A stretch of DNA of 34,013 nucleotides from an uncultured Atribacterota bacterium (GTDB lineage Bacteria; Atribacterota; Phoenicimicrobiia; Phoenicimicrobiales; Phoenicimicrobiaceae), in contig CAZWFH010000003.1 of assembly GCA_964632105.1 (NCBI GenBank), forward strand, positions 1-34,013. The letters are read 5' to 3'. The position numbers were made by a program, and so were the translations under genes. How positions within the stretch are numbered: position 1 is the first letter of the stretch; every line of letters starts with the position of its first letter. Below, one piece after another: positions 5,783 through 28,222 of the stretch. The notes beneath the pieces are model-generated. The model was not told where the DNA came from. It made no database searches and worked only from the letters and a program-made list of their open reading frames with translations.

Positions 5783-5809
5783 TTTGTAGATTAACAGGTT
5801 CCATTATAG

Positions 5810-6144
5810 ACTTCTCCTGGCTGGAGAGGGAGGGACTTGTGCTCTTTCTCTAAGGAGCTATCAAATCCCCTGAGGTAGAAAACGATAAGCTTTTAGGAGA
5901 TATAATTATCTCTATAGAGATTGCTCAAAGGCAGGCAGATACCTTAAATCATAGCATGGAAAAAGAATTAACGGTATTATTAATTCATGGCTTATTACAC
6001 TTAACGGGTTATGATCATGAAAAAGACAAAGATTATAAAATTATGCGAGAAAAAAAGAGTGAAATGTTGATAAGATTTGCTTGTTATTTACTTTTTTTAG
6101 GTTATTTTAACACAAAAAGTAAATATGTAGAAAAAAATACTTAG
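5810..6144 (+). pseudogene. ybeY: Fragment of ybeY (endoribonuclease YbeY), N-terminally truncated and disrupted
   Basis: The zinc motif HGLLHLTGYDH (5986-6018) is preceded by LLGDIIISIEIAQRQA in the same frame, which is stopped by TAA at 5851-5853. A WRGRDLCSFS stretch resembling the yRGkD.pTDVLSFP block lies in another frame. About 55 N-terminal residues are absent. Confidence 0.65.
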
Positions 6145-6267
6145 CATAAATTTGCTGAACGAAAAGAGATAAAAAATTGGGGGGAGGTGAGTTGTAAGCC
6201 TACTAAAATATTTGCTTTTAGTTAGTATGTAAAATTTTATTTTAAAAAATAAAAGGAGAGATTATTA

Positions 6268-10047: not shown

Positions 10048-10063
10048 AATTCCAGCGGTAAAT

Positions 10064-10083
10064 CCCCGTCCGTAAGGGCGGGG
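10064..10083 (+). terminator. GC-rich hairpin with GTAA tetraloop after the lyase gene
   Basis: CCCCGTCC-GTAA-GGGCGGGG (one G:T pair) lies 17 nt after the stop. A T6 run follows only about 20 nt later, so terminator function is uncertain. Confidence 0.4.
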
Positions 10084-10124
10084 AGCTTCATTACAAGAAT
10101 TTTTTAAAAAATAGGAAGGAAAAG

Positions 10125-11558
10125 ATGAAGATGATTAAAGGCATTTATAATATAAATGATTATGGCGCTGTGGCTGATGATAAAACTCTGAATAGTGATG
10201 TGTTTGCTGCAGTAATTCGTGAGTGCTCTCAAGCCGGAGGTGGGACTATCTATATTCCGGCAGGCATCTTTCTTACCGGGCCAATTCAACTGAAAAGCAA
10301 TATTACCATTTACCTGGAAGCAGGAGCCAGGGTTAAATTTGTACAAAATATAGAGCATTATAATGTAATTATTGATAGATGGGAAGGTCTGGAGCAGGAG
10401 GTATATGCCCCTATGATAAATGGTCAAGGGCTGGAAAATATCACTATTATCGGCCGGGGTATTCTGGATGGTCAGGGTGAATACTGGTGGAACCTCTTTA
10501 ATAAAAAAGAGTTAAAGTATCATCGCCCCCGTTTTATTGGGTTTTTAAACTGCAATAATGTATTAATTGAGGGTATAAAACTGATTAATTCCCCAAGTTG
10601 GACTATTAATCCTATTAATTGTCGTAATGTGGTAGTAAATAAAGTTACTATCGAAAATCCTGCTATCTCACCCAATACTGATGGTATCAACCCGAGTTCT
10701 TGTAAGAATGTCCATATATCCGATTGTCATATAGATGTAGGGGATGATTGTATTGCCATTAAATCCGGTACAGAGCAGTGTAATAATTTAATACCTTGCG
10801 AAAATATTACTATTAGTAACTGTACTATGGTCCACGGCCATGGAGGTGTTGTTATCGGAAGCGAGACGAGTGGTGATATAAGAAATGTTGTAATATCCAA
10901 TTGTGTTTTTGAAGGAACTGATCGGGGAATAAGAATAAAGTCCAGAAGGGGTCGGGGTGGTGTTGTTGAAGACATCAGAGTAAATAATATAGTTATGAAA
11001 AGGGTTATCTGTCCCTTTATCATTAATTTGTATTATTATTGTGGAGAGGGTGGTAAGGATAAAATAGTCTGGGATAAGAATGAATACCCGGTAAATGAAG
11101 GGACTCCGGTTATCAGAAGAATACATTTTAGCAATATTACAGCCAGGGGTATAATTGCTACTGCTGCCTTTATATACGGACTTCCTGAAATGCCTGTAGA
11201 AGATATTACCTTTGATAATGTATCAGTTAATCTTGCAGAGGATTCAGCGCCTGCCATTCCAGCCATGATAAGTCATTTAAAACCCATTAACCATCAGGGT
11301 TTTTATTGTAATAATTTCAGGAATATAAAATTTAATAATATAAAGATTGGTGGGCATGAAGGACCTGCTTTTGAAATGATAAAGGGTAAAAATATAGAAT
11401 TTACGGGATGTGAGGTTGAAAATTGTGGGAATAGTAATCCGGTTATTGTTTTAGAAGAGATTGACCAAGCTTATATATTCAGCAATAAACAGTCAAAACA
11501 AAATGATAATTTTCTTTATTTGAGAGGTTCCGGGAATAAGGGTATTGATTTTGGCTAA
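10125..11558 (+). CDS. GH28 polygalacturonase (probably exo-acting, cytoplasmic)
   Basis: All four GH28 signature blocks are present: NTDGINP, GDDCIAIKSG, GHGGVVIGSE and RGIRIKS. There is no signal peptide. Confidence 0.85.
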   Translation: MKMIKGIYNINDYGAVADDKTLNSDVFAAVIRECSQAGGGTIYIPAGIFLTGPIQLKSNITIYLEAGARVKFVQNIEHYNVIIDRWEGLEQEVYAPMINGQGLENITIIGRGILDGQGEYWWNLFNKKELKYHRPRFIGFLNCNNVLIEGIKLINSPSWTINPINCRNVVVNKVTIENPAISPNTDGINPSSCKNVHISDCHIDVGDDCIAIKSGTEQCNNLIPCENITISNCTMVHGHGGVVIGSETSGDIRNVVISNCVFEGTDRGIRIKSRRGRGGVVEDIRVNNIVMKRVICPFIINLYYYCGEGGKDKIVWDKNEYPVNEGTPVIRRIHFSNITARGIIATAAFIYGLPEMPVEDITFDNVSVNLAEDSAPAIPAMISHLKPINHQGFYCNNFRNIKFNNIKIGGHEGPAFEMIKGKNIEFTGCEVENCGNSNPVIVLEEIDQAYIFSNKQSKQNDNFLYLRGSGNKGIDFG

Positions 11559-11705: not shown

Positions 11706-12899
11706 ATGAAACCTATTACCATTGTGTTAATCGGTATTGGTGGTTATGGAAATTTTTATGTCCGGTCTTTACTGGATAACAAAGGAGTATGCAACTTTAA
11801 GATTGCAGGAGCTGTAGACCCCTATCCAGAAGGCTGCCAGAGATTGCACGAGTTAAAGGAATTAAACATCCCTATTTTTTCTTCCATGGAAGAATTTTAT
11901 AGCAAGGGCAATGTTGACCTGGCTATTATTTCTACCCCTATCCAATATCATACCGAACAAATTTGTTATTCACTAAATAGGGACTCTCATGTCTTATGTG
12001 AAAAACCTTTATGTGCTACAATTGAAGATGCAAAGGAAATAATTAAGATTGAGAAAAGTAAAAACAAAATTGTTGCTATAGGTTACCAGTGGTCTTTTAG
12101 TGAAGCTATTCAGGAGCTAAAACATGATATAATATCAGGTAAATTTGGGAAGCCTAAACGGTTAAAAACACTGGTACTGTGGCCCAGGGATTTTGCTTAT
12201 TATAATAGAAATAGCTGGGCAGGCCGGAAGCAGGATAGTGCAGGAAACTGGGTACTGGATAGTGTGGCCAGTAATGCAACATCCCACTTTCTGCATAATA
12301 TGTTTTATCTATTAGGAAAAGAAATTAATCAAAGTACACATCCGGCTCTGGTACTGGCAGAACTATACCGTGCTAATAAGATTGAAAACTATGATACTGC
12401 TTTTGTCAGAGTAATGACTACGGAAAATGTAGAACTCTTCTTTTATGCAACCCATGCTGTCGAAGAAAGAGTAGGGCCAAAGTTTTACTTTGAATTTGAA
12501 AAGGCTTCTGTTATTTATAACCAGAATTCAGATAATAAAGAGATTATTGCCATATTCAATAATGGAGAAAAAAAGATATATGGTGACCCCTTCAAAAATA
12601 AGGATAGTAAATTATGGTCTACTCTTAATACTGTTAGTGAGGGCGGGAAAACGGTTTGCGGTCCTCAGGCTTCTCTTGCTCAGGTTATCTGTATAAATAA
12701 AATACAGGAATCGGCTCCTGAGATTACAAATTTTCCGGATAATCTAATTAAACCGGTAAGTAAAAACGGAGAAAAGGTTGCTATCTATGTAGAGGGTTTA
12801 AAATATGATATGGAATATTGTTATGGTAGCTGGAAATTACCTCATGAATTAGGTATATCCTGGTCTCGTACCGGTAGGATAGTGTCAAGTAAGCTATAA
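11706..12899 (+). CDS. Gfo/Idh/MocA family NAD(P)-dependent oxidoreductase
   Basis: N-terminal Rossmann motif IVLIGIGGYGNFY, EKP motif HVLCEKPL, 397 aa. Substrate unknown. Confidence 0.7.
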   Translation: MKPITIVLIGIGGYGNFYVRSLLDNKGVCNFKIAGAVDPYPEGCQRLHELKELNIPIFSSMEEFYSKGNVDLAIISTPIQYHTEQICYSLNRDSHVLCEKPLCATIEDAKEIIKIEKSKNKIVAIGYQWSFSEAIQELKHDIISGKFGKPKRLKTLVLWPRDFAYYNRNSWAGRKQDSAGNWVLDSVASNATSHFLHNMFYLLGKEINQSTHPALVLAELYRANKIENYDTAFVRVMTTENVELFFYATHAVEERVGPKFYFEFEKASVIYNQNSDNKEIIAIFNNGEKKIYGDPFKNKDSKLWSTLNTVSEGGKTVCGPQASLAQVICINKIQESAPEITNFPDNLIKPVSKNGEKVAIYVEGLKYDMEYCYGSWKLPHELGISWSRTGRIVSSKL

Positions 12900-12994
12900 A
12901 AAATATGAATTTAGTTATGTTAATGAATGTTCAAAAGGGCTTCATTCCTATAGTGAAATAGAGTTTAAAAAGACAATTTGTAAGAGGTTTGACT

Positions 12995-14023
12995 ATGTTG
13001 GAAGATGACAGGGAAACAATAAGAGTTTGCATTATTGGTGATACCGGCCATACCGGTTATGTTTTAGAAGGAATAAAAAAGGATTTGTCAATAAGAATAG
13101 CTGGAATTGCCAGGGGTTCAAAAGGAGAGGAAATAAAGGATTTTCATAACAAACTAAATAAGGAATTTGATTATGATATTCCGTTATATGATAATTACCG
13201 GGAAATGTTAAGGGTTGTAAAACCGGATATTGCAGCAATTGCTTGTTACTTTGGAGATCATGCCCGGGTTACAGTGGAAGCATTAGAAAGGTCTATAAAT
13301 GTTTTTGTAGAAAAACCTATTGCTACCACCTTTGAAGAATTAGAGCAGATTAAAAACGTTTATAAAAAAGCCGGTGTAAATCTGGCTGTAATGTTTGGTA
13401 CAAGGTATTACCCCTGGTTTTATATTGCCCGGGAGAAGGTGCTGGAAGGGGCTGTGGGTACGATTCGTCTTCTATTAGCTCAGAAATCATATAAGCTTGG
13501 TTCACGTGGAACTCATTATCAGAAACGTGATACATATGGAGGGACAATACCCTGGGTTGGTAGTCATGCCATTGATTGGCTTTACTGGTTTAGTGGTGAA
13601 AAATTTGAATCGGTTGTTGCTCATCATTCTAAAAAGTATAATCGTAATCATGGGGAGCTAGAAGTCACAGCTGTCTGCCAGTTTAAAATGACCAATGAAG
13701 TTTACGGAATGGTATCTATAGATTATCTCCGTCCGAAAACGGCACTTGGTCATAGTGATGACCGGCTTCGGGTAGTCGGTACGAAAGGAATAATAGAAGT
13801 GGCCAACAATAAGGTTTTTATTATTAATAAAGACTGCCAGGGGCTTCAGGAACTACCTGTACCCTCTGCTGGAGGGCAAATCTTTCTGGATTTTGTTAAG
13901 CAAATAAGGGGCAGAGGTAGCTGTCTGGTTAGTGCTGAAGATGCTTTTTACATTACTGATTCATGTTTAAAAGCCCGACAATCTGCTGATGAGCAGAGGA
14001 TTATATATTTCAATAAAGATTAG
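12995..14023 (+). CDS. Gfo/Idh/MocA family oxidoreductase
   Basis: IRVCIIGDTGHTGY Rossmann motif and VFVEKPI motif. ATG 12995 is preferred over the track start TTG 12989 because AGAGG lies 7 nt upstream. Confidence 0.7.
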   Translation: MLEDDRETIRVCIIGDTGHTGYVLEGIKKDLSIRIAGIARGSKGEEIKDFHNKLNKEFDYDIPLYDNYREMLRVVKPDIAAIACYFGDHARVTVEALERSINVFVEKPIATTFEELEQIKNVYKKAGVNLAVMFGTRYYPWFYIAREKVLEGAVGTIRLLLAQKSYKLGSRGTHYQKRDTYGGTIPWVGSHAIDWLYWFSGEKFESVVAHHSKKYNRNHGELEVTAVCQFKMTNEVYGMVSIDYLRPKTALGHSDDRLRVVGTKGIIEVANNKVFIINKDCQGLQELPVPSAGGQIFLDFVKQIRGRGSCLVSAEDAFYITDSCLKARQSADEQRIIYFNKD

Positions 14024-14247: not shown

Positions 14248-15648
14248 ATGAAATATATTAAAGATAAAGTAGAGAATATAAATATTGCATATATTGGTGG
14301 AGGTTCAATGGGATGGGCCTGGGGAATTATGAGTGATCTGGCATTAGAAGAGAGCCTTTCAGGTACTATAAAATTATTTGATATTAACTATGAAGCTGCG
14401 TATGCCAATGAAATTATTGGTAATAAACTTTTAAAAAGAAATGAAGTTAAAGGAAAGTGGAAATATAAAGCAGTTAAAAGTCTAAAAGAGGCAATTTTAA
14501 AGGCTGATATTGTTTTTATATCTATACTCCCTGGGACATTTCAGGAAATGAAGAGTGATGTTCATTTACCAGAGAAATATGGTATTTATCAATCAGTTGG
14601 AGATACCGTTGGTCCTGGTGGCATTGTCAGGGCATTAAGAGCTATACCTATGTTTATAGAATTTGCCAGGGCTATTAAGGAATATTGCCCTGAAGCATGG
14701 ATTATTAATTATACTAATCCTATGTCTGTCCTGGTTAGAACTCTTTATAAGGTATTTCCAGAGATAAAAGCCTTTGGATGCTGTCATGAAGTATTTGGGA
14801 CACAAAAACTTCTAACTATGATGTTAAAAGAGATGCGGGGAATAAATGGGATTAGCAGAGAAGAAATTAAAGTAAATATACTAGGTATAAATCATTTTAC
14901 CTGGATTAATAGAGCTTCATATAAGGGTATTAATTTAATACCATTGTATTCAGAATTTGTAGATAAATATTATGAAGATGGTTATGAGCAATCAGAAAAG
15001 GGATATTGGATGAATGATTATTTTTCTTCGGCTGAACTTGTAAAATTTGACCTTTTTAGACGTTTTGGATTAATAGCTGCTGCAGGAGATAGGCATCTGG
15101 CCGAGTTTGTACCGGGCACATGGTATCTAAAGGATCCAGAAACCGTAAAAAGATGGAAATTCAGCCTTACCCCAGTAGACTGGAGGATAGAGCATAAAAA
15201 AGAGTTAAAGGAGAAGAGTAGAAGACTTGTTAATGGTGAGGAAGAATTTGAATTAAAACCTTCAGGTGAAGAAAATGTTAAACAAATTAAAGCTCTGTTA
15301 GGTTTAGGCGATTTAATTACTAATGTAAATATTCCTAACATCGGGCAAATAAATAATTTGCCCGATAAAGTTATTGTGGAAACAAATGCTGTATTTAGAA
15401 GGGATAGAATTGAACCGGTAATAGCTGGGAAACTACCAGAAGAATTACTAAACTTAATTATTACTCATGTTTTAAATCAAGAAACGCTATTGAAAGCTGT
15501 TTTGACCAAAGATAAGGAATTAGCATTTAGAGTATTTTTAAATGATCCCCAGATAATGAGATTAGACATTAGTGATGCTAGAGATTTATTTATAAAAATG
15601 TTGGAAAATGTAAAAGAATATTTAATTTTTAAAAAATTAAAATTATGA
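14248..15648 (+). CDS. GH4 NAD+/Mn2+-dependent glycosidase, LplD-like (alpha-galacturonidase candidate)
   Basis: IAYIGGGSMGWAWGIMSDL, GIYQSVGDTVGPGG and INYTNPMSVLVRTLYKVFPEIKAFGCCHEV closely follow the GH4/LplD pattern. Confidence 0.75.
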   Translation: MKYIKDKVENINIAYIGGGSMGWAWGIMSDLALEESLSGTIKLFDINYEAAYANEIIGNKLLKRNEVKGKWKYKAVKSLKEAILKADIVFISILPGTFQEMKSDVHLPEKYGIYQSVGDTVGPGGIVRALRAIPMFIEFARAIKEYCPEAWIINYTNPMSVLVRTLYKVFPEIKAFGCCHEVFGTQKLLTMMLKEMRGINGISREEIKVNILGINHFTWINRASYKGINLIPLYSEFVDKYYEDGYEQSEKGYWMNDYFSSAELVKFDLFRRFGLIAAAGDRHLAEFVPGTWYLKDPETVKRWKFSLTPVDWRIEHKKELKEKSRRLVNGEEEFELKPSGEENVKQIKALLGLGDLITNVNIPNIGQINNLPDKVIVETNAVFRRDRIEPVIAGKLPEELLNLIITHVLNQETLLKAVLTKDKELAFRVFLNDPQIMRLDISDARDLFIKMLENVKEYLIFKKLKL

Positions 15649-15660
15649 AAAGTTGGTAAA

Positions 15661-17661
15661 ATGAAAAAGAAATATATTTCTATCCAGGGAATAACCCTTC
15701 CTTTCTATCGCTGTCATACTTTAATTATTGGTTCAGGAGCTGCTTCCTTAAATTGTGCCCTTCATCTGCATAATTTTGGCCTTAAAGATATAGTAATCGT
15801 TACTGAATGTTTAGGAGGAGGTACTTCTAACAATTCTGGATCGGATAAGCAAACTTATTATAAACTTTCTCTTTTTGGCCAAGAAAGAGATTCAGTCTAC
15901 GCCATGGCCCAAACTCTATTTTCGGGTGGCTCTATGCATGGAGATATTGCTTTAGTGGAAGCTGCTCTTTCCCCCCAAGAATTTTTTCACTTAGTAGAGA
16001 TTGGTGTTCCCTTCCCTCATAATGTTTATGGTGGATATGTAGGATATAAAACTGATTATGATCCAAAACAACGAGCTACCTCAGCCGGTCCCTGGACATC
16101 TCAACAAATGTTTAAAAAATTATTAATACAAGTGCAAAAGGAAAAAATCCCTATCCTGGATAAATACGAAGTAATTTCTCTTCTAACCAACGGAAAAGGA
16201 GCGGAAAAAAGAGTAGTGGGGGCAATAGCTATTAATAAAAAGTTAGCTTCTACTGGGCTATCCTCTTTAGTTATTTTCCAAGCAGAGAATATTGTAATGG
16301 GAACTGGCGGTCCCGGTGGTTTATATAAAACTTCAGTTTATCCGGAAAAACATTTAGGTAGCACAGGTATCGCTTTGGAGGTGGGGGCAAGGGCGGTAAA
16401 TTTGACTGAATGGCAGTATGGTATTGCCTCTACTAAATTTCGTTGGAATTTATCCGGTACTTATCAGCAGGCTATTCCTTGTTACATTAGTACTAAATTA
16501 GATGGTTCAGACGAAAAGGAATTTTTAAATGAATATTTTCCCACCATGGGAAAGTTAGCTACTGCAATATTTCTCAAGGGGTATCAGTGGCCATTTGCTG
16601 TAGAGAAAATAAAAAATTACGGTTCCTCTTTAATCGATATTTTAGTGTATCAGGAAAATATTATTAAAGGACGTCGAGTTTTTCTTGATTTTAGAAAAAA
16701 TCCTACGGCAAACCAGAAATTAGAAGAGTTTAATCTAAATAATTTAGATGCCGAAGCTTATACTTATTTAAAAAAAGGAGAAGCACTTTTAGATACTCCT
16801 TTTGATCGTTTAAAACAGATGAATCCTTTAGCAGTGAATATTTACCGACAGCATGGGATTGACCTAAGTAAAGAACCTTTAGAAATAGCTGTTTGTGCCC
16901 AGCATAATAATGGAGGTTTAGTCGGTAATATTTGGTGGGAATCCAATATTAAACATTTATTTCCCATAGGAGAGGTAAATGGTAGCCATGGAGTTCATCG
17001 TCCCGGTGGTTCTGCTTTAAATTCTGGACAAGTAGGAGGTTTGCGAGCAGCGGAATTTATCTCTCAAAAATATTTTGATTTTACTTTAAATAAGAAAGAT
17101 TTTTTAGATCAAACTAAATTACAGATAGCCTCCAAATTAGAATTAACCCAAAAAGCCTTGCAGGGTGTACATAAATCAGGGCAAGATATGTCTTCTTTCC
17201 GTAGGGAATTTCAAGAAAGAATGACTAAATATGCCGCTCATATCAGGAACTTACAAGATATTAAAAGGTCCTTAAAAGAAGCCCAGACTCAATATAAGCA
17301 CTTAAATTCAGGGGAAATAAGTTTAAATGATAAGGCAGAAATAGTAGAATTTTTCCAGAATAGGCAGTTGTGCTTAACCCAAGTAGCAGTATTAAAGAGC
17401 ATAGAGGCCTACCTGGAGGGAGGCGGGGGGAGCCGAGGTTCTTATTTAGTTTTAGATAAGCAAGGAGAATTTATAAGTGAAAAATTAAATAAGCAATGGA
17501 AATATCGACCTGAGTTAGTGAAATGGCGAAAATTTATTTTAGAATATCAATATAGGGAAAGAACTCAGAAAATAAATTGGATTCCCGTGAGAGAAATTCC
17601 CCAGGATAAATTTTGGTTCGAAAAAGTATGGAAGTCCTATATAAATAAAGAAATTTATTGA
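15661..17661 (+). CDS. FAD-binding oxidoreductase of the SdhA/FrdA/NadB/AprA flavoprotein fold; substrate unknown
   Basis: LIIGSGAASLNCAL dinucleotide motif, GGGTSNNSGSDKQ, and the C-terminal block CAQHNNGGL...GEVNGSHGVHRPGGSALNSGQVGG. It starts 13 nt after the GH4 stop. Confidence 0.6.
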   Translation: MKKKYISIQGITLPFYRCHTLIIGSGAASLNCALHLHNFGLKDIVIVTECLGGGTSNNSGSDKQTYYKLSLFGQERDSVYAMAQTLFSGGSMHGDIALVEAALSPQEFFHLVEIGVPFPHNVYGGYVGYKTDYDPKQRATSAGPWTSQQMFKKLLIQVQKEKIPILDKYEVISLLTNGKGAEKRVVGAIAINKKLASTGLSSLVIFQAENIVMGTGGPGGLYKTSVYPEKHLGSTGIALEVGARAVNLTEWQYGIASTKFRWNLSGTYQQAIPCYISTKLDGSDEKEFLNEYFPTMGKLATAIFLKGYQWPFAVEKIKNYGSSLIDILVYQENIIKGRRVFLDFRKNPTANQKLEEFNLNNLDAEAYTYLKKGEALLDTPFDRLKQMNPLAVNIYRQHGIDLSKEPLEIAVCAQHNNGGLVGNIWWESNIKHLFPIGEVNGSHGVHRPGGSALNSGQVGGLRAAEFISQKYFDFTLNKKDFLDQTKLQIASKLELTQKALQGVHKSGQDMSSFRREFQERMTKYAAHIRNLQDIKRSLKEAQTQYKHLNSGEISLNDKAEIVEFFQNRQLCLTQVAVLKSIEAYLEGGGGSRGSYLVLDKQGEFISEKLNKQWKYRPELVKWRKFILEYQYRERTQKINWIPVREIPQDKFWFEKVWKSYINKEIY

Positions 17662-17673
17662 AAGAGAGAAATA

Positions 17674-19029
17674 GTGAGTAAAAAATTTAATTACCATAGC
17701 CTCGAAGAATTGCAGAAAGAAGTTCATCAGGATAATATTGAGCTTGATTTTTCAGAGAGCACGGAGGTCTTAAATCAAAGTTTGATAATAAATAATCACC
17801 GAATTCCTAACAGATTAGCTATTCAGCCTATGGAGGGATGTGACAGTGATGAGCAAGGTAGTCCGGGAGAATTAACTTTTAGAAGATATAAACGGTTTGC
17901 CCAAGGAGGAGCTGGCTTAATCTGGTTTGAAGCAACTGCTATTTTACCTGAAGCCCGCTCTAATCCACATCAACTTTTATTAAATGAGTTTACAGAACCA
18001 GCCTTTGCTGAATTATTAAGGATGACCAAAGATAGAGCTATGCAAGAATACGGGGCACATCATGAGCCTTTTTGTGTTTTACAATTAAACCATTCCGGGA
18101 GGTTTAGTAAACCTGAAGGGGTACGAAAACCTTTAATTGCAGTTCACCACTCTGCCTTGGATAAAGTAGTAAATATTGATGATAATTATCCTTTACTAGA
18201 AGATGGACAGTTAAAATATATTCAGGAAAAATTTGTAAAATCTGCGAAACTAGCTTATAAGGCGGGTTTTGATGCGGTAGATATTAAATCATGCCATGGT
18301 TACCTGATATTGGAATTATTAGGGGCTAAAACCAGAAAGGGAGAATACGGAGGCTCTTACCAAAACAGGACGAGATTTTTAAAAGAGACTATAGAATTAA
18401 TTAAACAAGAAGTACCTCAGCTAATTATTACCACTCGTTTGAATATTTCTAATGTAATTTTTTCGGAAAATAATTGGGGTATTAGCAAAAATAATAATAG
18501 CGGTGAATGGGAGGTTAATTTAAGTGAGCCCAAAAGATTAGTAAAAGAATTGGATGATTTAGGTTTATCTTTAATTAATGCAACTGCTGGTATACCTTAT
18601 TTTAATCCTCATGTAAATCGACCTTATGATCGGCCCATAAAAGAAGGTTGTCCCGAACCAGAACCTCCTCTAAAGGGAGTAGAAAGAATGTTTAAATTTG
18701 CCCATCAGATCCAAGAAGAGGTGCCTGATTTGCCAATAATAGGAACGGGTTATAGTTGGCTACGCCAATTTGGAGGAGCTGCTGCTGCGGCAAATATTGA
18801 AAAAGGCTATCATTCCTTAGCTGGATTCGGTCGACAAGCTTTTGCTTATCCTAATTTTGCCCGCGATCTTTTAGAAAAAGGTCAAATGAAGGATAAGAAG
18901 TGCTGTATTACCTGTAGTAGATGTTCCCAGCTAATGGTTTGGGGTTCAAAAACAGGCTGTGTTGTTCGTGATGCTGACCTCTATGCCAATGTGTATAAAG
19001 AGGTATCAGCAGTGTCAAAAAATAAATAA
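17674..19029 (+). CDS. Old-Yellow-Enzyme-type FMN oxidoreductase with C-terminal 4Fe-4S cysteine cluster (enoate/2,4-dienoyl-CoA reductase N-terminal module only)
   Basis: PNRLAIQPMEG, LNHSGRF, DAVDIKSCHGYLILELLGA...EYGGSYQNRTRF and CCITCSRCSQLMVWGSKTGC. GTG start 12 nt after the preceding stop. At 451 aa it lacks the FAD/NAD(P)H domain of full-length family members. Confidence 0.65.
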   Translation: MSKKFNYHSLEELQKEVHQDNIELDFSESTEVLNQSLIINNHRIPNRLAIQPMEGCDSDEQGSPGELTFRRYKRFAQGGAGLIWFEATAILPEARSNPHQLLLNEFTEPAFAELLRMTKDRAMQEYGAHHEPFCVLQLNHSGRFSKPEGVRKPLIAVHHSALDKVVNIDDNYPLLEDGQLKYIQEKFVKSAKLAYKAGFDAVDIKSCHGYLILELLGAKTRKGEYGGSYQNRTRFLKETIELIKQEVPQLIITTRLNISNVIFSENNWGISKNNNSGEWEVNLSEPKRLVKELDDLGLSLINATAGIPYFNPHVNRPYDRPIKEGCPEPEPPLKGVERMFKFAHQIQEEVPDLPIIGTGYSWLRQFGGAAAAANIEKGYHSLAGFGRQAFAYPNFARDLLEKGQMKDKKCCITCSRCSQLMVWGSKTGCVVRDADLYANVYKEVSAVSKNK

Positions 19030-19147
19030 ATGAGTCTGAACAAATACAAATAAAAGCAGTTGTTTAAGGGAACGGGAAAAAGGAGAAACCTTTTTAAACT
19101 ATAAGTAAGCATATTATTAAATTCTATTAAAGGAGTGTGGAGGAGAT

Positions 19148-19924
19148 ATGATTGAGCAGAAGGTTGCTGTTGTTACAGGAGCTGCTCGAGGAATTGGGTA
19201 TAGTATTGCTCTGCAGCTGGCAAGGGATGGCTGTGCTATTGCTATATTTGATATTTTGGAGCCAGAAAAAGTTGAGGAAAACATGAAAGAGCTTAAAAAA
19301 GAATGCCAACCAGTACTTTATTTTCAGGGAGATCTTGCTCAGAGTAAAGATCACGACAACTTCTGTAAGCAGGTTATGAAAGAGTACGGGAGGATTGATT
19401 TTTTAATAAATAATGCTGGGGTTGCCCCCAGGGTAAGAATGGATATTCTGGAAACAAACGAGGAGAGCTTCGATTTTGTACTAGATATCAATCTCAAAGG
19501 GACTTTCTTTTTAACTCAGGCTGTTGCGAATATAATGGTCCAGCAGATGGAGGAGAATTCCGATTTTAAACCTAAAATCGTCAATATTGGGTCCCTATCC
19601 TCTTATACATCATCACCATCAAGGGGAGAATATTGTATCTCTAAGGCCGGGGTTAGCATGATAACTAAGCTTTTTGCTGACCGCCTCTCCGAATACAGGA
19701 TTAACGTTTATGAAATCAGACCAGGAATAATTTATACAGATATGACAAAAAGTGTTAAAAATAAATACGACAAACTGATTGATAGTGGTATTACTCCAAT
19801 TAAGCGATGGGGATATCCTGAGGATGTAGCAAAAGCAGTATCTGTTTGTTGTTCAGGGAAATTAGATTTTTCTACCGGCGAAATAATTAATGTGGATGGA
19901 GGTTTCCATTTAAAAAGACTTTGA
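19148..19924 (+). CDS. SDR family oxidoreductase (classical, FabG-like)
   Basis: VAVVTGAARGIGYSIA, NNAG, S...YCISK catalytic triad pattern, 258 aa. Specific substrate not assignable. Confidence 0.7.
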   Translation: MIEQKVAVVTGAARGIGYSIALQLARDGCAIAIFDILEPEKVEENMKELKKECQPVLYFQGDLAQSKDHDNFCKQVMKEYGRIDFLINNAGVAPRVRMDILETNEESFDFVLDINLKGTFFLTQAVANIMVQQMEENSDFKPKIVNIGSLSSYTSSPSRGEYCISKAGVSMITKLFADRLSEYRINVYEIRPGIIYTDMTKSVKNKYDKLIDSGITPIKRWGYPEDVAKAVSVCCSGKLDFSTGEIINVDGGFHLKRL

Positions 19925-20054
19925 TTTTTTAATCATATGATAAATAAAACATCATTTGATATATATTCTTTAGCAGTAAAATTGTTTCGTATAATTTTTT
20001 TAAGCAAGAAAATTTATAACGATTTTTTGACACAAATTCATGGTAAGTAAAAAT

Positions 20055-20084
20055 TTGACAAGATTAGAATGCCTTTTATATAAT
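20055..20084 (+). promoter_or_regulatory. Sigma-70-type promoter (TTGACA, 18 nt, TATAAT) of the intact IclR gene
   Basis: TTGACA at 20055-20060 and TATAAT at 20079-20084, with the same spacing as the promoter at 1367-1396. Confidence 0.55.
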
Positions 20085-20110
20085 GTAAATTGAATTGTAA
20101 ATAAAAAAAA

Positions 20111-20128
20111 ATTCTACAATATAGAAAT
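20111..20128 (+). promoter_or_regulatory. Imperfect palindrome related to the 1418-1438 operator
   Basis: ATTCTACAATATAGAAAT shares the right half TATAGAAAT exactly; the left half has 2 mismatches. It occupies the same position between the -10 box and the RBS. Confidence 0.35.
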
Positions 20129-20145
20129 AAATAAGGAGATACAAT

Positions 20146-20973
20146 ATGGAAAAAATACGTCCCAATTACCCTATAAAAGTTTTAGATAAATCCCTCTCCA
20201 TTCTCGAGACCATGCTTCGACAGGGTTCTGCTATGAGCATGACTGAAATCAGTGAAAAATTAGGACTCTATCCCAGCACCACTCACCGTATATTAGATAC
20301 TTTAAAACATTGGGGATATGTGGAGCAAGAACCCAATAATCAGAGATACCAGCTAGGTCTAAAAGTTATAGAATTAGGCATGGCTAAACTTCACCAAATG
20401 GACCTGGCAAGAGAGGCTACTCCTTATCTAAAAGAGCTAGTAAATCAGTGTAACGAAACTGTCCATTTAGGAGTTCTGGAAGAGGGAGAAGTTATGTATT
20501 TAGCCAAAGAGGAGTCTTCTCAAACAATAAGAATGATCTCTTACGTAGGGAAAAGAGCTCCTCTTCACTGTACGGCATTGGGGAAAATACTATTAGCCTA
20601 TATGTCAGAAGAAGAAAGAGAAAAAATCTTAGAAGATAGAGAACTTCCTCGCCTTACCGAGAAGACCATCACTGATAAAAGGGAATTAGAAAAAGAACTT
20701 GGTAAAGTAAGAGAACAGGGTTTTGCCTTAGATAGAGAAGAAAACGAAAAGGATGTTCGCTGTGTAGCTGCCCCCATCAGGAATCATCAAGGAAAAGTTA
20801 TAGCTGCTATTAGTATTTCAAGCCCTATTTTCAGGATAGATAAAAATGTACAAAATAATCTAAAAAAAGTTCTTATAGAGACAAGCGAAAAAATATCTAA
20901 AAGATTGGGATATAAAGAAAAATCGCAAAAAGAGGAAAAGAAGGAGGTGGAAACTAGAGAAAAATTTATTTAG
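20146..20973 (+). CDS. kdgR: IclR-family transcriptional regulator (KdgR-like pectin/hexuronate regulator)
   Basis: N-terminal wHTH (MSMTEISEKLGLYPSTTHRILDTLKHWGYV) and C-terminal IclR effector domain (GFALDREENEKDVRCVAAPI). The symbol is inferred from context only. Confidence 0.7.
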   Translation: MEKIRPNYPIKVLDKSLSILETMLRQGSAMSMTEISEKLGLYPSTTHRILDTLKHWGYVEQEPNNQRYQLGLKVIELGMAKLHQMDLAREATPYLKELVNQCNETVHLGVLEEGEVMYLAKEESSQTIRMISYVGKRAPLHCTALGKILLAYMSEEEREKILEDRELPRLTEKTITDKRELEKELGKVREQGFALDREENEKDVRCVAAPIRNHQGKVIAAISISSPIFRIDKNVQNNLKKVLIETSEKISKRLGYKEKSQKEEKKEVETREKFI

Positions 20974-21075
20974 TGGGGTTAAATAGACAAAATTACTGGC
21001 TTAATGATCAGAATATTATTATTTTTAAGGAGAAAGAATATGTCCCTCAAAGCTATAATAAATTCCAGTAGATAG

Positions 21076-21135
21076 ATGAATTTAGTAAATAAAGTAGCTA
21101 TAGTTACTGGTACAGGTCGAGGTATAGGCAAACTT
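21076..21135 (+). pseudogene. Stub of an SDR gene (first ~20 codons only)
   Basis: MNLVNKVAIVTGTGRGIGK is a canonical SDR N-terminus. It then runs into AT-rich non-homologous sequence and a stop. Confidence 0.5.
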
Positions 21136-21196
21136 ATTTTTAAGAACTTCATATTTATTTTTTATTATTTATTTTAAACAGGAGAGGTTTGTAATT

Positions 21197-21888
21197 ATGG
21201 AAAGTCCCATTCGTGTTGGAATTGTTGGTAGTCGTTTTGCTGCTGAGTTTCATTATACCGCCTATCAGCGGGTAACTGGTATATAGGTAAGAGTTGTCAT
21301 CCTTTATCAGCTATACTTTATCTGAAACAGGTAGAAGGAATTGCTCGTAATGGCAAGGCAATTCGTCCGAAAGCAGTTAGTGCTCGAACTCATAAGATAA
21401 CCCGAAACCCAAGATTTATCGATAAAGGTTTTCTAAGAACCGATTATGAGGATATCGAGGATTACGGTAATATTCACGTAATTTTTGATGATGGGATGAT
21501 TGCTGATATTTTTGCTTCAGAATTGGTGATGGGAGGTGTGCACAACTGGCTTGAAATCTTTGCCAATAATCATCATAGGACTCGTTGCAACCTGAGTCCT
21601 ACTAATGCAATGGAACTTTACAATCCACAAGAGGAACAGTTGGCAGATGTTTATGTGATGGAGAAAATCGGAACCAAACAAGGTTGGTCTAACCCTTCAC
21701 CAGATGAAAACTGGATGTTTGGCTATCCTCAGGAGATTTAAGACTTTATGGAGGCAATTGCTACTAATCGGGAACCTAAGTCCGGAATGTTGGCAGCAAG
21801 TGATACAGTAAGCGTTCTTTATGCTGCCTACCTTTCAGCAGAGCGTAAAGGGGAGGAAGTTGAGATACCGCTCGATTCTTCGTTCTAA
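21197..21888 (+). pseudogene. Gfo/Idh/MocA oxidoreductase remnant with internal deletion and in-frame stop
   Basis: The N-terminus MESPIRVGIVGSRFAAEFHYTAYQRVTGI stops at TAG 21284-21286. The frame then switches to GNWYIGKSCHPLSAILYLKQ..., so about 130 aa of the Rossmann domain are missing. A TAA at 21739-21741 is in frame between GYPQEI and DFMEAIATNREP. The homologous end is at 21888. Confidence 0.7.
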
Positions 21889-22173
21889 GTATAAGAGCCT
21901 ATAGAAATTCCCGCAGTTTTTATAGAAAAATTCTCCCTTAGATTGATTTACTTATACAATGTTTAGAGAAAATTTTACTTTATCTTAAAATTTCGCTAAA
22001 ATATTTAAGATTAGTAAAAAGTTTTAGTAAGTGCATTTGTAAGTATATTAAGGGCATTCTACACCCTTCTTTAAAATTCTTTAAATATTAGGTTAATTTA
22101 CTAAAAAATAAAGGTTATACAAAAATAAAATGTGATAAAAAAGTATTTATAAGTCCTTCCAAAGGAGATTATT

Positions 22174-23631
22174 ATGAAAGATAAAGATGGCTTTTTAAGT
22201 AAAGATTGGTTATTAGATACAACTGAAGGAATAAAATTATATCATGATATCGCTGTTCCCCTAAGAAAGGAAGTTGGAATTATTGATACTCACACTCATC
22301 ATAATTTAAGACAGATTGTAGAAAATGAACCTTTCCCCAATATTTGGAGGGCTGAAGTTCTGGAGACAAGAGAAGAATATAAAAATTGCGATCATTATAT
22401 TATTCAATTGGCAGCAAAGCTCCCCGGTTTCTCTCAAGCTTTAGCCAGGGATCCTCAAATTTCAGATTATGATAAATGGGTAGCCTTGTGCAAGGTATTT
22501 CCTCATCTCGAAGGCAATCATGTTCATCAATGGATGCATTTGGATTTAAAGAGGATGTTTGGAATCGAGGAATTATTGAGTGCAGAGACCGCAGATAGAG
22601 TATGGAAAAAAGCAAATGATTGTTTAAAACAAAAGGACATGTTGCCCCAGGCAATACTTAAAAGAGTTAGAGCGAGGATTATCTGTACGACCGATGATCC
22701 AGTAGATGATTTATACTATCACAAAATGGCTAATAACATAGAAGGTATAAATTTTTTGCCTACTTTTAGACCTGATGCTTATTGTAATATCTTTATTGAT
22801 AAATGGAAATCGAATGTGGAAAAAATCTGTCAATTAACTGGACAAGAAACAACTCTTAAAGGTCTTGTGGAAGCTTTAAGAATAAGACATACTTATTTTG
22901 CCGAAAGGGGAGCAAAGGCAAGTGATCATGGTTTGTTGGAGCCTTATGGTTTAACAATTAGTCAGAAAAGAGCTGAGGAAATTTTCCAACAAGCTTGTAA
23001 TAAGGGAGAAAAATTTAGTCTCAGATCACCAGAGACTAAAGAATTTATTTCTTATATGATGCATCAATTCTGTGCTATGAATCAAGAAAAAGGTATGGTT
23101 ACCCAAATCCATTATGGAGCAATCAGAAATGCTAATGAATATTTATTTAAAAATTGGGGGACTGATGTAGGAGGTGATATTTCAACAGAAAATGTAAATA
23201 TTATTGAAAACTTACAACCTTTGTTAACGAGATTTTTTAGTGGAGAAGATAAAAATCAAAGTCATTTAATATTGTATCCAATGAACCAGATATTTGCCCA
23301 TACTAATGTGATGTTAGAAAGAGCTTTTCCTAACGTTCATTCTGGTTTCCCTTGGTGGCATAATGATAATCCTTATATTATGGAACAATATTTGTTGCAT
23401 ACTGCAAACTCTTCTTTACTTACTTCAAGTGGTGGTCCAGTCTGTGATGGAAGGAAGATTTTGTCGGAAGGAAGTAGATTTGAGGTTTTTGATAGAATAA
23501 TATGCAAAGCTGTAGGAAATCTTGTTTCGAGCGGACAGATGTCCTATAATGGAGGGGTTAGAACAACAAAAGCGTTGATGTGTGAAAATCAAATGCGGTT
23601 ATTCAATTTAAAAGGAGAAATTAATGAATAA
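22174..23631 (+). CDS. uxaC: Glucuronate/galacturonate (uronate) isomerase
   Basis: AAAGGAGA RBS. FLSKDWLLDTTEGIKLYHDIA...IIDTHTHHNL matches the UxaC N-terminal metal-binding HxH region. Length is 485 aa. Confidence 0.8.
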   Translation: MKDKDGFLSKDWLLDTTEGIKLYHDIAVPLRKEVGIIDTHTHHNLRQIVENEPFPNIWRAEVLETREEYKNCDHYIIQLAAKLPGFSQALARDPQISDYDKWVALCKVFPHLEGNHVHQWMHLDLKRMFGIEELLSAETADRVWKKANDCLKQKDMLPQAILKRVRARIICTTDDPVDDLYYHKMANNIEGINFLPTFRPDAYCNIFIDKWKSNVEKICQLTGQETTLKGLVEALRIRHTYFAERGAKASDHGLLEPYGLTISQKRAEEIFQQACNKGEKFSLRSPETKEFISYMMHQFCAMNQEKGMVTQIHYGAIRNANEYLFKNWGTDVGGDISTENVNIIENLQPLLTRFFSGEDKNQSHLILYPMNQIFAHTNVMLERAFPNVHSGFPWWHNDNPYIMEQYLLHTANSSLLTSSGGPVCDGRKILSEGSRFEVFDRIICKAVGNLVSSGQMSYNGGVRTTKALMCENQMRLFNLKGEINE

Positions 23632-25123
23632 GCAGGGAATTTTAAAGTATTTTAATAAATATTATTGGGATAGGTATATTGTTTACACTTCTTCTATAAA
23701 AAAGTTAGAGAAAGAAAATTATTTTTTTATGGTAAAAGATAAAAAGAAAAAGTATCTTGTAGTATTTGCTGTAGATGCTGTTGCGCAAAAATTTGAAGGT
23801 AGCGTTTTAGAAGAAAAAGAAGTAAACCAGAATGAATTGATCATCAAGATATGTAGTTTAAACCATAATAATCTTACTCTACTACGAGAAATATTCCCCC
23901 ATCTCAATCCTTCTTTTTGTGGTCTTAAACCATCTTTTGGTACCGGAGACCGTTTAGGAATAGCTACTCCTGCTCATCTTCAGGCCTTTAAAGGAAAAGA
24001 TATTTTCCCCATTTTAGCTCAGCAATCAGTTAGAGAGATGTCCAGAATGGAAAGAAATTGGCAAAAAGTTTTAGATGATGCAATTTGGGGTTGTTTTGAG
24101 GCAGGTTACATTGGTCCTTTTGGGGCTGATGCAGATCATGTAAAAGAAATTAAGGAGTTAAAAGAAGCAGCAGATTGCGGCTTCACCATGTTTACTTTAG
24201 ATCCTTCTGATTTTATAAGAAATGATATTGAAAGGTTAAGCAAACAAGAATTAGAACAACTTTATAAACAGATTTCTAATGGTAAAGAATTAGAAAATTT
24301 ATATTTAAATAAGAAGTATAAAATCGGTGAGCAAGAATTAATATTCGATGAAGAATCATTGAAAGAAATTATACTTACTTATTCTGAAGCCTTAAATCAT
24401 GTGGTGAAATGTTATAAATTTTTAAAGGATTATAAAAAAAATAATTTTGATTTAGAAATATCTGTAGATGAAACTCCCACAGTTACATCTCCTTTAGCGC
24501 ATTTATTTATTGTTTTGGAACTACAAAGAAGGGGAGTAGATTTTCAGAATATCGCTCTTCATTTCTTGGGAGATTGGCAAAAAGGAATAGAATATATAGG
24601 TAATGTAAAGGAATTTGCCAGGGAATTTTCTTTACACGCAGCTATCGCAAAAAATATCGGAGGATACAAACTTTCTCTTCACACCGGAAGTGATAAGTTT
24701 TCTGTTTATCCTATTTTTTCTCAGGAGACAGACGGTCTTTGCCATATAAAAACTGCCGGGACCAGCTGGTTAGAGGAAGTAAAAGTGGTTGCCATGAAAG
24801 ACCCGTCTCTTTATCGAGAGATTCATCGATTTGCTTTGGAGAATTTTGCAAAAGATAGAGCATCTTATAATTTAACTACTGACCTTTCTCGTATACCCGA
24901 TATAGATACAATTGCAGATGATGAATTGGTAAATTTTTTCAAACAGAATGACTCTCGACAGCTTATCCATATAACTTATGGTTCTATTCTAAGAGCAAAG
25001 GATGATGAAGGAAAATATATCTTTAAAGATAGAATCTACAAAATATTATTTGAGTATGAAGAAGACCATTATCGGGAACTTTCTAATCATATTAGGAAAC
25101 ATTTGGAGCTTTTAAATAAATAA
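23624..25123 (+). CDS. uxaE: Tagaturonate/fructuronate epimerase-like protein (UxaE family candidate)
   Basis: Overlaps uxaC by 8 nt (ATGAATAA). About 500 aa with FGTGDRLGIATPAH and GADADHVK blocks. The synteny uxaC, this gene, SDR, gnd mirrors the Thermotoga maritima TM0438-TM0441 neighbourhood as I recall it. Confidence 0.55.
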   Translation: MNKQGILKYFNKYYWDRYIVYTSSIKKLEKENYFFMVKDKKKKYLVVFAVDAVAQKFEGSVLEEKEVNQNELIIKICSLNHNNLTLLREIFPHLNPSFCGLKPSFGTGDRLGIATPAHLQAFKGKDIFPILAQQSVREMSRMERNWQKVLDDAIWGCFEAGYIGPFGADADHVKEIKELKEAADCGFTMFTLDPSDFIRNDIERLSKQELEQLYKQISNGKELENLYLNKKYKIGEQELIFDEESLKEIILTYSEALNHVVKCYKFLKDYKKNNFDLEISVDETPTVTSPLAHLFIVLELQRRGVDFQNIALHFLGDWQKGIEYIGNVKEFAREFSLHAAIAKNIGGYKLSLHTGSDKFSVYPIFSQETDGLCHIKTAGTSWLEEVKVVAMKDPSLYREIHRFALENFAKDRASYNLTTDLSRIPDIDTIADDELVNFFKQNDSRQLIHITYGSILRAKDDEGKYIFKDRIYKILFEYEEDHYRELSNHIRKHLELLNK

Positions 25124-27862: not shown

Positions 27863-28222
27863 ATGAGCAAAGAAATAAGGAATCATAAAGATTTGGAAGT
27901 TTGGAAAAAAAGTATAGATTTGGTCAGTAATATTTATAAAATTACTGAGTCTTTTCCAAACAAAGAACTTTATGGTTTAACAAATCAAATAAGAAGAGCA
28001 GCGGTTTCTGTTCCTTCAAATATTGCTGAAGGTGCTGCAAGAAACTCTAAAAAAGAATTTATTCAATTTTTATACATAGCCTTAGGATCATTATCTGAAC
28101 TCGAGACGCAAATTATTATTGCAAGCAGGTTAGAATATTTAAATAATTTAGATACTTTATCAGAGGACCTTAAATTTGTACAAAAATTGATAAATGGATT
28201 AATATATTATTTAAAAAAGTAA
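27863..28222 (+). CDS. Four-helix-bundle protein (23S rRNA intervening-sequence protein family)
   Basis: 119 aa. LEVWKKS...FPNKELYGLTNQIRRAAVSVPSNIAEGAAR.SKKEFIQFLYIALGSLSELETQ is the hallmark pattern of this family. Confidence 0.85.
   Translation: MSKEIRNHKDLEVWKKSIDLVSNIYKITESFPNKELYGLTNQIRRAAVSVPSNIAEGAARNSKKEFIQFLYIALGSLSELETQIIIASRLEYLNNLDTLSEDLKFVQKLINGLIYYLKK

Follow-up and report, generated by a model that had tools for sequence, protein, structure and literature searches.

A conserved FAD protein, OYE and SDR gene trio in a pectin locus of an uncultured Atribacterota bacterium: a candidate route into sugar-acid breakdown

What might two flavoproteins and a short-chain dehydrogenase/reductase (SDR) do beside genes for the breakdown of pectin? 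The question is raised by a 34,013-nt stretch of DNA from an uncultured Atribacterota bacterium (contig CAZWFH010000003.1 of assembly GCA_964632105.1), called the window below. It is one of the contigs of a metagenome-assembled genome (MAG) of 2.2 Mb that is 79% complete. Three genes of the window encode a flavin adenine dinucleotide protein of the FrdA/SdhA fold (the FAD protein), a flavin mononucleotide (FMN) protein of the Old Yellow Enzyme family (OYE) and an SDR. A preliminary description of the window, made from its letters, had placed this trio outside the textbook hexuronate pathways, and our analysis bore this out. We give a probability of about 0.5 to the reading that the trio is a conserved catabolic redox module, which makes 2-keto-3-deoxygluconate (KDG), or a compound very close to it, from an oxidised, uronate-derived C6 sugar acid. 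That the feed in this window would be 5-keto-4-deoxyuronate (DKI/DHU) or an unsaturated uronate is a more tentative proposal, somewhat short of an even chance. The trio probably marks an undescribed route into sugar-acid breakdown. No paper describing the FAD/OYE/SDR module was found in the literature, and the databases label such proteins as 'succinate dehydrogenase flavoprotein', '2,4-dienoyl-CoA reductase' or 'FAD-binding protein'.

Conservation and coupling of the three genes

Relatives of the FAD protein were sought in one genome per species. More than 600 stretches/species matched, and the best 80 loci were kept, with 50-67% identity to the FAD protein of the window. Lineages represented among these 80 loci include Bacillota, Aminicenantes, KSB1, Fibrobacterota, Spirochaetota, Halanaerobiales, Chloroflexota, Armatimonadota, Bipolaricaulota and Bathyarchaeia. 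Neighbourhoods were counted in the 45 loci of other species with at least 3.5 kb on either side of the FAD gene. An orthologous SDR (45-69% identity) lay beside the FAD gene in 33 of the 45 and an orthologous OYE in 31, both together in 25; a PfkB kinase was present in 11. In the reverse survey, which started from OYE in metagenome contigs, 22 loci had full flanks, and 14 of these had the FAD gene close by. In many loci the stops and starts of OYE and FAD, or of SDR and FAD, overlap by a few bases or lie a few nucleotides apart. The usual orders are OYE-FAD-SDR and OYE-SDR-FAD, of which the order in the window, FAD-OYE-SDR, is a variant. The arrangement is not due to chance, and it recurs in dozens of species of many phyla.

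A search of 1.8 billion representative proteins also gave a natural OYE::FAD fusion of 1084 amino acids (P0250), found in two assemblies and followed by an SDR. Its residues 4-426 correspond to OYE with the Cys cluster and residues 446-1079 to the FAD protein, joined by a linker of about 20 residues. The fusion is good evidence that OYE and the FAD protein work together. Given the conserved adjacency, the overlapping stops and starts and the fusion, the FAD protein and the short OYE appear to form a genuine functional pair, as the preliminary description had suggested when it spoke of a split or re-wired ene-reductase system. The gene of the fusion protein lies at 8001-11255 of locus L184, where the SDR and a xylose-isomerase-like TIM-barrel gene belong to the same operon.

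The coordinates and lengths of the open reading frames (ORFs) and the spacers given in the preliminary description were confirmed. It had also called the trio translationally linked to the GH4 (glycoside hydrolase family 4) gene upstream. The packing is indeed close, but the wording was too strong for two genes that lie 12 nt apart and do not overlap. As a general feature this linkage did not hold: it is local, and GH4 is linked to the FAD/OYE pair in one other locus only (L104).

Active-site features of the FAD protein, OYE and SDR

PF00890 is the only Pfam family matched by the FAD protein. The protein misses every NCBIfam equivalog cut-off, that of TfrA included, and scores 89 bits against a cut-off of 453 for NadB (TIGR00551) and 72.7 against 567 for SdhA/FrdA (TIGR01812). 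An AlphaFold model built with a 107-sequence alignment reached a pLDDT of 90. The best Foldseek matches of this model were FrdA/SdhA (1KF6, 5VPN, 1NEK) with E 1e-31, TM 0.65-0.8 and 16-18% identity, followed by AprA and NadB, and by this comparison of structures the four-domain FrdA/SdhA fold is present. In the profile alignment with 1NEK_A, the His of the covalent 8-alpha-FAD (SdhA His45) falls on a near-invariant Asn58, and FAD is probably held non-covalently. The 'QFHPT' motif reads Q252-Y253-G254, so that the position of the catalytic His (FrdA His232, SdhA His242, NadB His244) is taken by G254, which is invariant in the 107 sequences. Both H415 and R447, the equivalents of FrdA H355 and R390, are invariant. 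The FAD protein is thus predicted to keep one carboxylate-binding half-site beside the flavin, and its substrate would be a monocarboxylate. With Asn58 and Gly254 in these places and H415/R447 retained, the protein is neither a fumarate reductase nor an aspartate oxidase (NadB), and both assignments were rejected on the scores and the loss of the active-site His.

Like SdhA/FrdA and NadB, the FAD protein has the four-domain fold, a Rossmann FAD site and the flavin-side His/Arg pair. Proteins of the FrdA/SdhA and AprA fold family are normally paired with an iron-sulfur (Fe-S) partner subunit, and here too the likely partner bears an Fe-S cluster. In contrast to SdhA/FrdA and NadB, the FAD protein has no covalent-FAD His, no HPT His, no SdhB/FrdB and no membrane anchor, and it is surrounded by sugar-acid genes. 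No gene for an SdhB/FrdB iron-sulfur subunit was found in the window.

The OYE protein is an FMN TIM barrel (PF00724, 94 bits, cut-off 27). Its orthologues start at the same position with M-x-x-KFNYHSLEEL, and the motifs HSGR and K205-x-C-H208-G-Y210(-L) are invariant among them. Tyr210 corresponds to the catalytic Tyr of the HGYL type, and Lys205 sits where OYEs of the YqjM type have the first His of a His/His pair. The Cys residues C411, C414, C417 and C429 are invariant in 17 orthologues and form a predicted [4Fe-4S] site. The preliminary description had stated that the protein ends after this CxxCxxC...C cluster and lacks the FAD/NAD(P)H domain. This was correct: the chain stops 22 residues past C429, and no Pfam match to Pyr_redox_2 or another FAD/NAD(P)H domain was found in it.

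Long forms of about 880 residues (43-48% identical), with a C-terminal Fer4_20 plus Pyr_redox_2 module of the GltD/DPD/Nfn type, make up about half of the OYE orthologues. No description of this architecture, an OYE/[4Fe-4S] barrel with a GltD-like module, was found, and it differs from the FadH/enoate-reductase layout. The NAD(P)H module fused in the long forms suggests that the FMN barrel of OYE is the true catalytic end of a chain NAD(P)H -> Fe-S -> FMN. Since the long forms carry their own electron-input module, the short forms, such as that of the window, would have to receive or hand on electrons in trans. Among loci L102 to L180, examples of the long form are L122:7992-10631 and L177:7956-10679. 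In L090, from which OYE is absent, a dihydroorotate-dehydrogenase-like barrel fused to the same GltD-type module lies 5' of a zinc-dependent alcohol dehydrogenase gene (ZnADH) and the FAD gene.

OYE resembles FadH, the clostridial 2-enoate reductases and BaiCD/BaiH in the FMN TIM barrel, the HGYL-type Tyr donor and the CxxCxxC...C motif after the barrel. It differs from them in that it stops after the cluster, has Lys205 and scores far below the family cut-offs. The part of the preliminary description that saw in the pair a split 2,4-dienoyl-CoA reductase (FadH) or enoate reductase did not stand. No homology links the FAD protein to the domain that OYE lacks, and the fused GltD-like module takes over the electron input in about half of the OYE orthologues.

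A closer parallel in architecture is offered by the bilirubin reductase BilR, of which short and long versions occur across genomes; the short form consists of the barrel only and has a flavodoxin-like partner, BilS (PMC10769871). Like BilR/BilS, the window has a barrel-only protein with an electron partner encoded next door. Its partner is a 666-aa FrdA-fold flavoprotein and not a flavodoxin, and the context is one of sugar acids and not of tetrapyrroles. The model of the bilirubin-reductase N-domain, NF045592, aligns with OYE end to end but with 86.5 bits against a cut-off of 425, and OYE reads HSGR instead of HGDR, the motif used as a criterion for bilirubin reductases (PMC10769871).

OYE is also found without FAD, beside genes of GFO/IDH/MocA dehydrogenases and xylose-isomerase-like TIM-barrel proteins (AP_endonuc_2). 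FAD-less short OYEs lie at L100:8712-12112 and L136:6727-12531, in neutral-glycoside loci with GH31, GH130, MGH1-like and DUF2264 genes. The gene content of these loci suggests an ene-reductase step joined to an oxidative pathway of the 3-keto-glycoside type.

For the SDR, the provisional model NF009386 (337 bits, cut-off 250) was the sole model passed. It stays below the KduD cut-offs, with 166.6 bits against 369 for NF005390 and 160 against 339 for TIGR01832. Its nearest solved structures are uncharacterised SDRs, and KduD follows with 122 bits. By these scores the SDR resembles KduD and FabG at family level only.

Sugar-acid context and the possible substrate

The commonest extra neighbour of the module is a KDG kinase or an aldolase of 2-keto-3-deoxy-6-phosphogluconate (KDPG). 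In 15 loci a 582-aa fusion of KDPG aldolase and PfkB kinase (NF041633) follows directly after the SDR, and these homologues are 48-55% identical to the PfkB kinase of the window. The window PfkB itself scores 492 bits over positions 243-580 of NF041633, which is the kinase half; the cut-off of 700 requires both halves of the fusion. NF041633 describes a KHG/KDPG aldolase/sugar kinase fusion family, and the window PfkB shares its kinase family. Two Eda aldolase genes are present in the same genome, outside the window. Other layouts are tripartite ATP-independent periplasmic (TRAP) transporter-FAD-IclR-KdgK-Eda (L010), ZnADH-FAD-PfkB-Eda (L090) and OYE-LacI-SDR-FAD-GFO-KdgK (L096). From these adjoining kinases and aldolases, the product of the module is very probably KDG or a close 2-keto-3-deoxy-hexonate. 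The nearest structures to the TRAP binding protein of L010 are 4NX1 and 4OVP, which probably bind taluronate and mannuronate.

Regulators of the KdgR-like IclR type occur in the window and in L009, L010 and L066, and in these three loci the IclR homologue adjoins the FAD gene. The regulator gene 3' of the SDR scores 226 bits with the KdgR model (cut-off 275). Homologues of GFO1, the first of two GFO/IDH/MocA dehydrogenases in the window, directly adjoin the FAD gene in L012, L061, L065 and L104 (45-56% identity), and a 29% homologue does so in L079/L096. In L094, OYE and FAD lie among IolG-, IolM- and IolO-like genes.

Lyases form a second recurrent context. The preliminary description had noted a pectate lyase in the window, and it is one of the polysaccharide lyase family 9 (PL9) type: 54% identity was found over 1252 aligned residues to a 1255-aa Halanaerobium protein with PelX_N, PelX_Ig and Pel9A-like beta-helix domains. 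That protein comes from Halanaerobium saccharolyticum, a cultured species of another phylum, which holds FAD and OYE in one large pectin locus (L093/L099). The order there is substrate-binding protein, permease, permease, GFO, OYE, mannitol-dehydrogenase-type reductase, UxaE, UxaC, UxaA, GFO, GH28, esterase-like protein, membrane protein, FAD, AraC and the PL9 lyase. Besides the lyase, the ABC permeases (about 60% identity), FAD (53%), OYE (46%) and UxaE (43%) of the window have counterparts in it. Within Atribacterota the FAD gene is accessory, with true orthologues in about 5 of 86 species and in 2 of 19 of the same genus, and together with the Halanaerobium-like locus this suggests lateral transfer of a whole pectin island. 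The parts of the window common to the Halanaerobium locus, almost gene for gene, are 2596-11558 and 15661-25123.

Another lyase-like setting was seen in L177, where Pfam gave OYE-GltD, SDR, an Eda-like aldolase, a BNR_4 protein, FAD and an IF-2B-type isomerase. BNR_4 is the fold of ulvan lyases PL24/25 (PMC13193363, PMC10868263). By ORF size only (about 490-530 aa at the BNR_4 position), L127, L128 and L145 follow the same pattern, and L128 ends with a PfkB gene. The link to uronates drawn in the preliminary description is therefore kept in part: sugar-acid catabolism is supported, as are pectate-lyase loci in the window and in Halanaerobium, but pectin is only one of several contexts.

For the step from DKI/DHU to KDG, the only enzymes described are KduI or DhuI with KduD or DhuD (PMC12838403). 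KduI, UxuA, GH88/105 and PL22 were found neither in the window, as the preliminary description had said of KduI and GH88/105, nor anywhere else in the 79%-complete genome. Like KduI/KduD and DhuI/DhuD, the module occupies the genomic niche between uronate lyase/hydrolase genes and kdgK/kdgA, with a KdgR-type regulator and an SDR of family-level resemblance. Two flavoproteins stand in the place of the isomerase, the window has no cupin KduI or RpiB-type isomerase, and the SDR is below the KduD cut-offs. By analogy, the module might be functionally equivalent to KduI/KduD or DhuI/DhuD.

The working of the module could then be as follows. Judging by homology, the PL9 lyase, the ABC importer, the GH28 protein and the GH4 protein of the LplD type would bring galacturonate and 4,5-unsaturated galacturonate to the cytoplasm, where the latter would open to DKI/DHU. 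The FrdA-fold protein may grip the carboxylate end of the acid with His415/Arg447. Synteny, the fusion and the folds are consistent with its FAD being wired to the FMN site of OYE through the C-terminal [4Fe-4S] cluster of OYE. The two flavins would share the C-C/C=C or alpha-carbon redox chemistry done elsewhere by KduI or a sugar-acid dehydratase; perhaps FAD oxidises the carboxylate-proximal carbon and FMN performs the ene-reduction. The SDR would carry out a final KduD-like ketoreduction to KDG, which the PfkB kinase and the Eda encoded elsewhere in the genome would consume. In this full form, an Fe-S-bridged two-flavin enzyme with a ketoreductase would take unsaturated uronates (DKI/DHU) or keto-hexonates to KDG by flavin chemistry, as a new route that replaces KduI/DhuI or metal-dependent sugar-acid dehydratases in anaerobes of many phyla, and we consider that doubtful.

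The same three enzyme classes meet in the bile-acid 7-alpha-dehydroxylation pathway, with BaiA (SDR), BaiCD/BaiH (OYE/Fe-S) and BaiJ/BaiP (FAD_binding_2), in which a hydroxyl is removed with the help of redox steps. This offers a mechanistic analogy for the deoxy position of KDG. The subfamilies are others, the substrates are steroids and not C6 acids, and the trio has no dehydratase of the BaiE type.

Several observations weigh against the conversion of a uronate-derived acid to KDG by the trio. To turn DKI into KDG takes no more than an isomerisation and a single ketoreduction, and it is not chemically obvious what an ene-reductase would do there. A kinase or aldolase accompanies the module in only about a quarter of the loci. 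The FAD gene also occurs outside sugar contexts: it follows cdaA in L001, and in Bacillus sp. V3-13 (L018) it stands beside genes for a CoA-transferase, an enoyl-CoA hydratase and an acyl-CoA dehydrogenase, a context that matches none of the sugar-acid readings. Pairing of FAD and OYE is not obligatory, with no OYE orthologue in four of the five FAD-bearing genomes tested and with OYE itself found apart from FAD. The anticorrelation with KduI proposed in the preliminary description is not clean, as 12 of 50 FAD-bearing genomes have a KduI/IolB-family gene. Moreover, 6 of the 11 FAD-bearing genomes with strong GH88/105 matches have both KduI/IolB and GH88/105. A sample of 151 genomes of an Aminicenantes-type class (at least 80% complete) speaks weakly for the conversion: KduI was found in none, FAD in 42, GH88/105-family genes in 31 and FAD with GH88/105 in 17, but this association (odds ratio 4.6, naive Fisher p 5e-4) has the relatedness of the genomes and their size as confounders. 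GH3 had been intended as its neutral control and, being near-universal (144 of 151), served as none. The genome of the window also has a split UxaA/GarD-family dehydratase at C159:729-2191 (a 101-aa SAF part and a 386-aa catalytic part) and two RpiB/LacAB-family genes outside the window. Given these genes, KDG could arise otherwise and a DhuI-type isomerase may exist. No DhuI/DhuD-like cluster was seen, the two RpiB/LacAB genes adjoining neither an SDR nor kdgK.

Some of these points bear on the alternatives too. The module might replace UxaB/UxaA or UxuB/UxuA and convert a 5-keto-hexonate (tagaturonate, fructuronate, 5-keto-gluconate) or an aldonate to KDG. For example, the C3 hydroxyl could leave in an oxidation-assisted beta-elimination, OYE could carry out the ene-reduction, the FAD protein could oxidise the C2 hydroxyl with electrons passing via Fe-S, and the SDR could reduce the 5-keto group. 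The stoichiometry would fit, with one oxidation, two reductions and one water lost. The window has UxaC and UxaE 2 kb downstream, UxuA was not found in its genome, the gene set of L094 is that of the Thermotoga-type inositol route, whose end product is tagaturonate, and L010 is laid out as an aldonate operon (transporter, X, regulator, kinase, aldolase) with the FAD protein at the place of the dehydratase. We nevertheless regard this substrate as unlikely. Only 20 of 50 FAD-bearing genomes have UxaC, and those whose operon is the compact OYE-FAD-SDR-aldolase/kinase one lack it; a keto-hexonate made by way of UxaC is thereby ruled out as the general substrate. Halanaerobium keeps FAD and OYE in its pectin locus although it has two UxuA and one UxaA, and the genome of the window has its own UxaA-family gene. 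Besides, the alpha,beta-dehydration of an aldonate is chemically easy and is not known to need a flavin.

It is quite unlikely that the pair is a soluble terminal reductase of the NADH:fumarate, acrylate or cinnamate kind, in which OYE with a ferredoxin or the GltD-like module would only input electrons and the FAD site would reduce an alpha,beta-unsaturated carboxylate (in unsaturated uronates, for instance, at C4=C5) to serve as an electron sink or to detoxify it. This idea has a precedent in the Klebsiella NADH:fumarate reductase and the acrylate reductase (ARD) of Vibrio harveyi, which join an NADH-oxidising OYE-like domain, an FMN_bind domain and a substrate-reducing FAD_binding_2 domain, the flavinylated FMN_bind serving as the bridge (bioRxiv 10.1101/2022.01.20.477176). 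Like these enzymes, the trio has an OYE-family and an FAD_binding_2 protein in one electron-transfer unit, the FrdA fold with His415/Arg447 is kept, the natural fusion exists and the carriers of the FAD protein are all anaerobes. Unlike them, it has a putative [4Fe-4S] bridge, belongs to other subfamilies, is made of separate chains in the window and is accompanied by an SDR and by KDG kinase/aldolase. Neither the FAD protein nor OYE gave a match to FMN_bind (PF04205, with the flavinylated Thr). Further, OYE retains the catalytic Tyr210 and a pocket of the substrate type, the fused NAD(P)H module feeds the long forms and makes FMN the catalytic end point and not the entry, the partners indicate a carbon pathway rather than a sink, and several genomes have the FAD gene without OYE. 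That last finding would favour three independent enzymes, acting with no FAD-OYE complex on sugar-derived enones or ketones from GFO/IDH/MocA dehydrogenases and GH4 (a '3-keto-glycoside' route). The GFO1 homologues beside the FAD gene in several loci and the FAD-less OYEs in GH31/GH130/MGH1-like loci, beside GFO/IDH/MocA and TIM-barrel genes, speak for the same. Such independence is improbable: the overlapping stops and starts, the enrichment of neighbours in both directions and the fusion point to coupling, and no electron donor is evident in the short OYE forms themselves. The preliminary description had further proposed that the pair reduces hydroxycinnamates freed from pectin side chains. 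Some OYE/Fe-S and FAD_binding_2 enzymes reduce cinnamates, but contextual support is absent here. Feruloyl esterase or phenolic-acid genes were seen in 0 of about 160 loci inspected, the neighbours being sugar-acid kinases, aldolases, SDRs, GFO dehydrogenases and LacI/IclR regulators, and this proposal appears highly improbable.

The conversion of a uronate-derived acid to KDG would matter beyond this locus, since the lyases of pectin, glycosaminoglycans, ulvan and gums all yield unsaturated uronates as their end product. Many of the anaerobes surveyed have lyase or unsaturated-uronyl-hydrolase genes and KDG kinase/aldolase, no KduI, and the module instead. If the module is the missing link, carbon flow in sediments, digesters and guts would have to be predicted anew, the FrdA and OYE superfamilies would gain a new type of reaction, and the thousands of genes that now pass as 'succinate dehydrogenase flavoprotein', '2,4-dienoyl-CoA reductase' or '3-ketoacyl-ACP reductase' could be annotated correctly. 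Whatever the substrate, this is a very widespread, highly conserved and uncharacterised enzyme family (50-67% identity across phyla).

Gene order and other features of the window

As shown in Table 1, the trio follows genes for pectin breakdown and import. All long ORFs of the window are on the + strand, and the GC content is about 35%. The closest homologues bear the labels Atribacteria or Atribacterota.

Table 1. Features of the window, with positions counted from its first nucleotide.
Feature	Position	Strand	Remarks
PfkB kinase	275-1303	+	Presumed KDG kinase; family elsewhere fused to KDPG aldolase directly after the trio
IclR gene, frame-broken into two frames (117 + 111 aa)	1547-2217	+	Near the window start
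CUT1-type ABC sugar importer	2596-5782	+	
PL9-type (PelX/Pel9A-like) pectate lyase, 1259 aa	6268-10047	+	Presumed source of 4,5-unsaturated galacturonides
GH28 polygalacturonase	10125-11558	+	PF00295, 196 bits; PglA model, 359 bits
GFO1, GFO/IDH/MocA dehydrogenase	11706-12899	+	PF01408; occasional fourth module member
GFO2, second GFO/IDH/MocA dehydrogenase	12989-14023	+	Pfam; homologue in the Halanaerobium pectin locus
GH4 alpha-galacturonidase, LplD type	14248-15648	+	PF02056 and PF11975; directly 5' of the FAD gene
FAD protein, 666 aa, FrdA/SdhA/NadB fold	15661-17661	+	PF00890, E 3.9e-15; core of the conserved module
OYE, 451 aa, GTG start, short form	17674-19029	+	PF00724; C-terminal [4Fe-4S] motif (predicted)
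Codons of C411-x2-C414-x2-C417-x11-C429	18904-18960	+	Predicted [4Fe-4S] ligands; from translation
SDR, classical, 258 aa	19148-19924	+	adh_short, adh_short_C2
Sigma-70-like promoter, TTGACA-18-TATAAT	20055-20084	+	12/12 consensus matches; 62 nt 5' of the IclR gene
IclR/KdgR-like regulator	20146-20973	+	IclR_C, HTH_IclR; 3' of the SDR

The spacers are 12 nt between GH4 and FAD, 12 nt between FAD and OYE and 118 nt between OYE and SDR, and the genes are all head to tail. The spacers between GH28 and the SDR contain no site that was called as terminator-like. Together with the perfect promoter before the IclR gene, this fits a single transcription unit ending after the SDR; the IclR gene having its own consensus promoter, the sequence suggests that the operon with the trio ends there. 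The GH4 protein gave 542 bits over residues 9-455 to LplD of Bacillus subtilis (PDB 3FEF, deposited as 'alpha-galacturonidase') and is by this match a clear LplD orthologue. Genes 3' of the IclR gene are those for UxaC, UxaE, a second SDR, a 6-phosphogluconate-dehydrogenase-like protein, a small 23S rRNA intervening-sequence-family protein (27863-28222) and LarA-like, phosphofructokinase-like and HAD proteins.

Two other loci showed unusual surroundings of the FAD gene. The homologue of Bacillus sp. V3-13 (55% identical) stands last in an operon with genes for a CoA-transferase, an SDR, an enoyl-CoA hydratase and an acyl-CoA dehydrogenase at L018:5636-12019, 3' of sugar ABC permeases. In one MAG (L024:7072-13096) the FAD gene is flanked by genes for an aldehyde:ferredoxin oxidoreductase, a DUF4432 protein (aldose-epimerase-like) and a PfkB kinase, which hints at ferredoxin-linked aldehyde chemistry around the FAD enzyme.

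At the 5' end of the window, the truncated first ORF (3-254) was considered as the tail of an Eda aldolase and rejected, as similarity was absent. On contig C86 of the same genome, an IclR gene (915-1694) that is 85% identical to the window IclR at 20146-20973 adjoins an Eda aldolase gene cut by the contig end. From this IclR-Eda arrangement, the aldolase partner of the window kinase may sit just beyond the start of the window.

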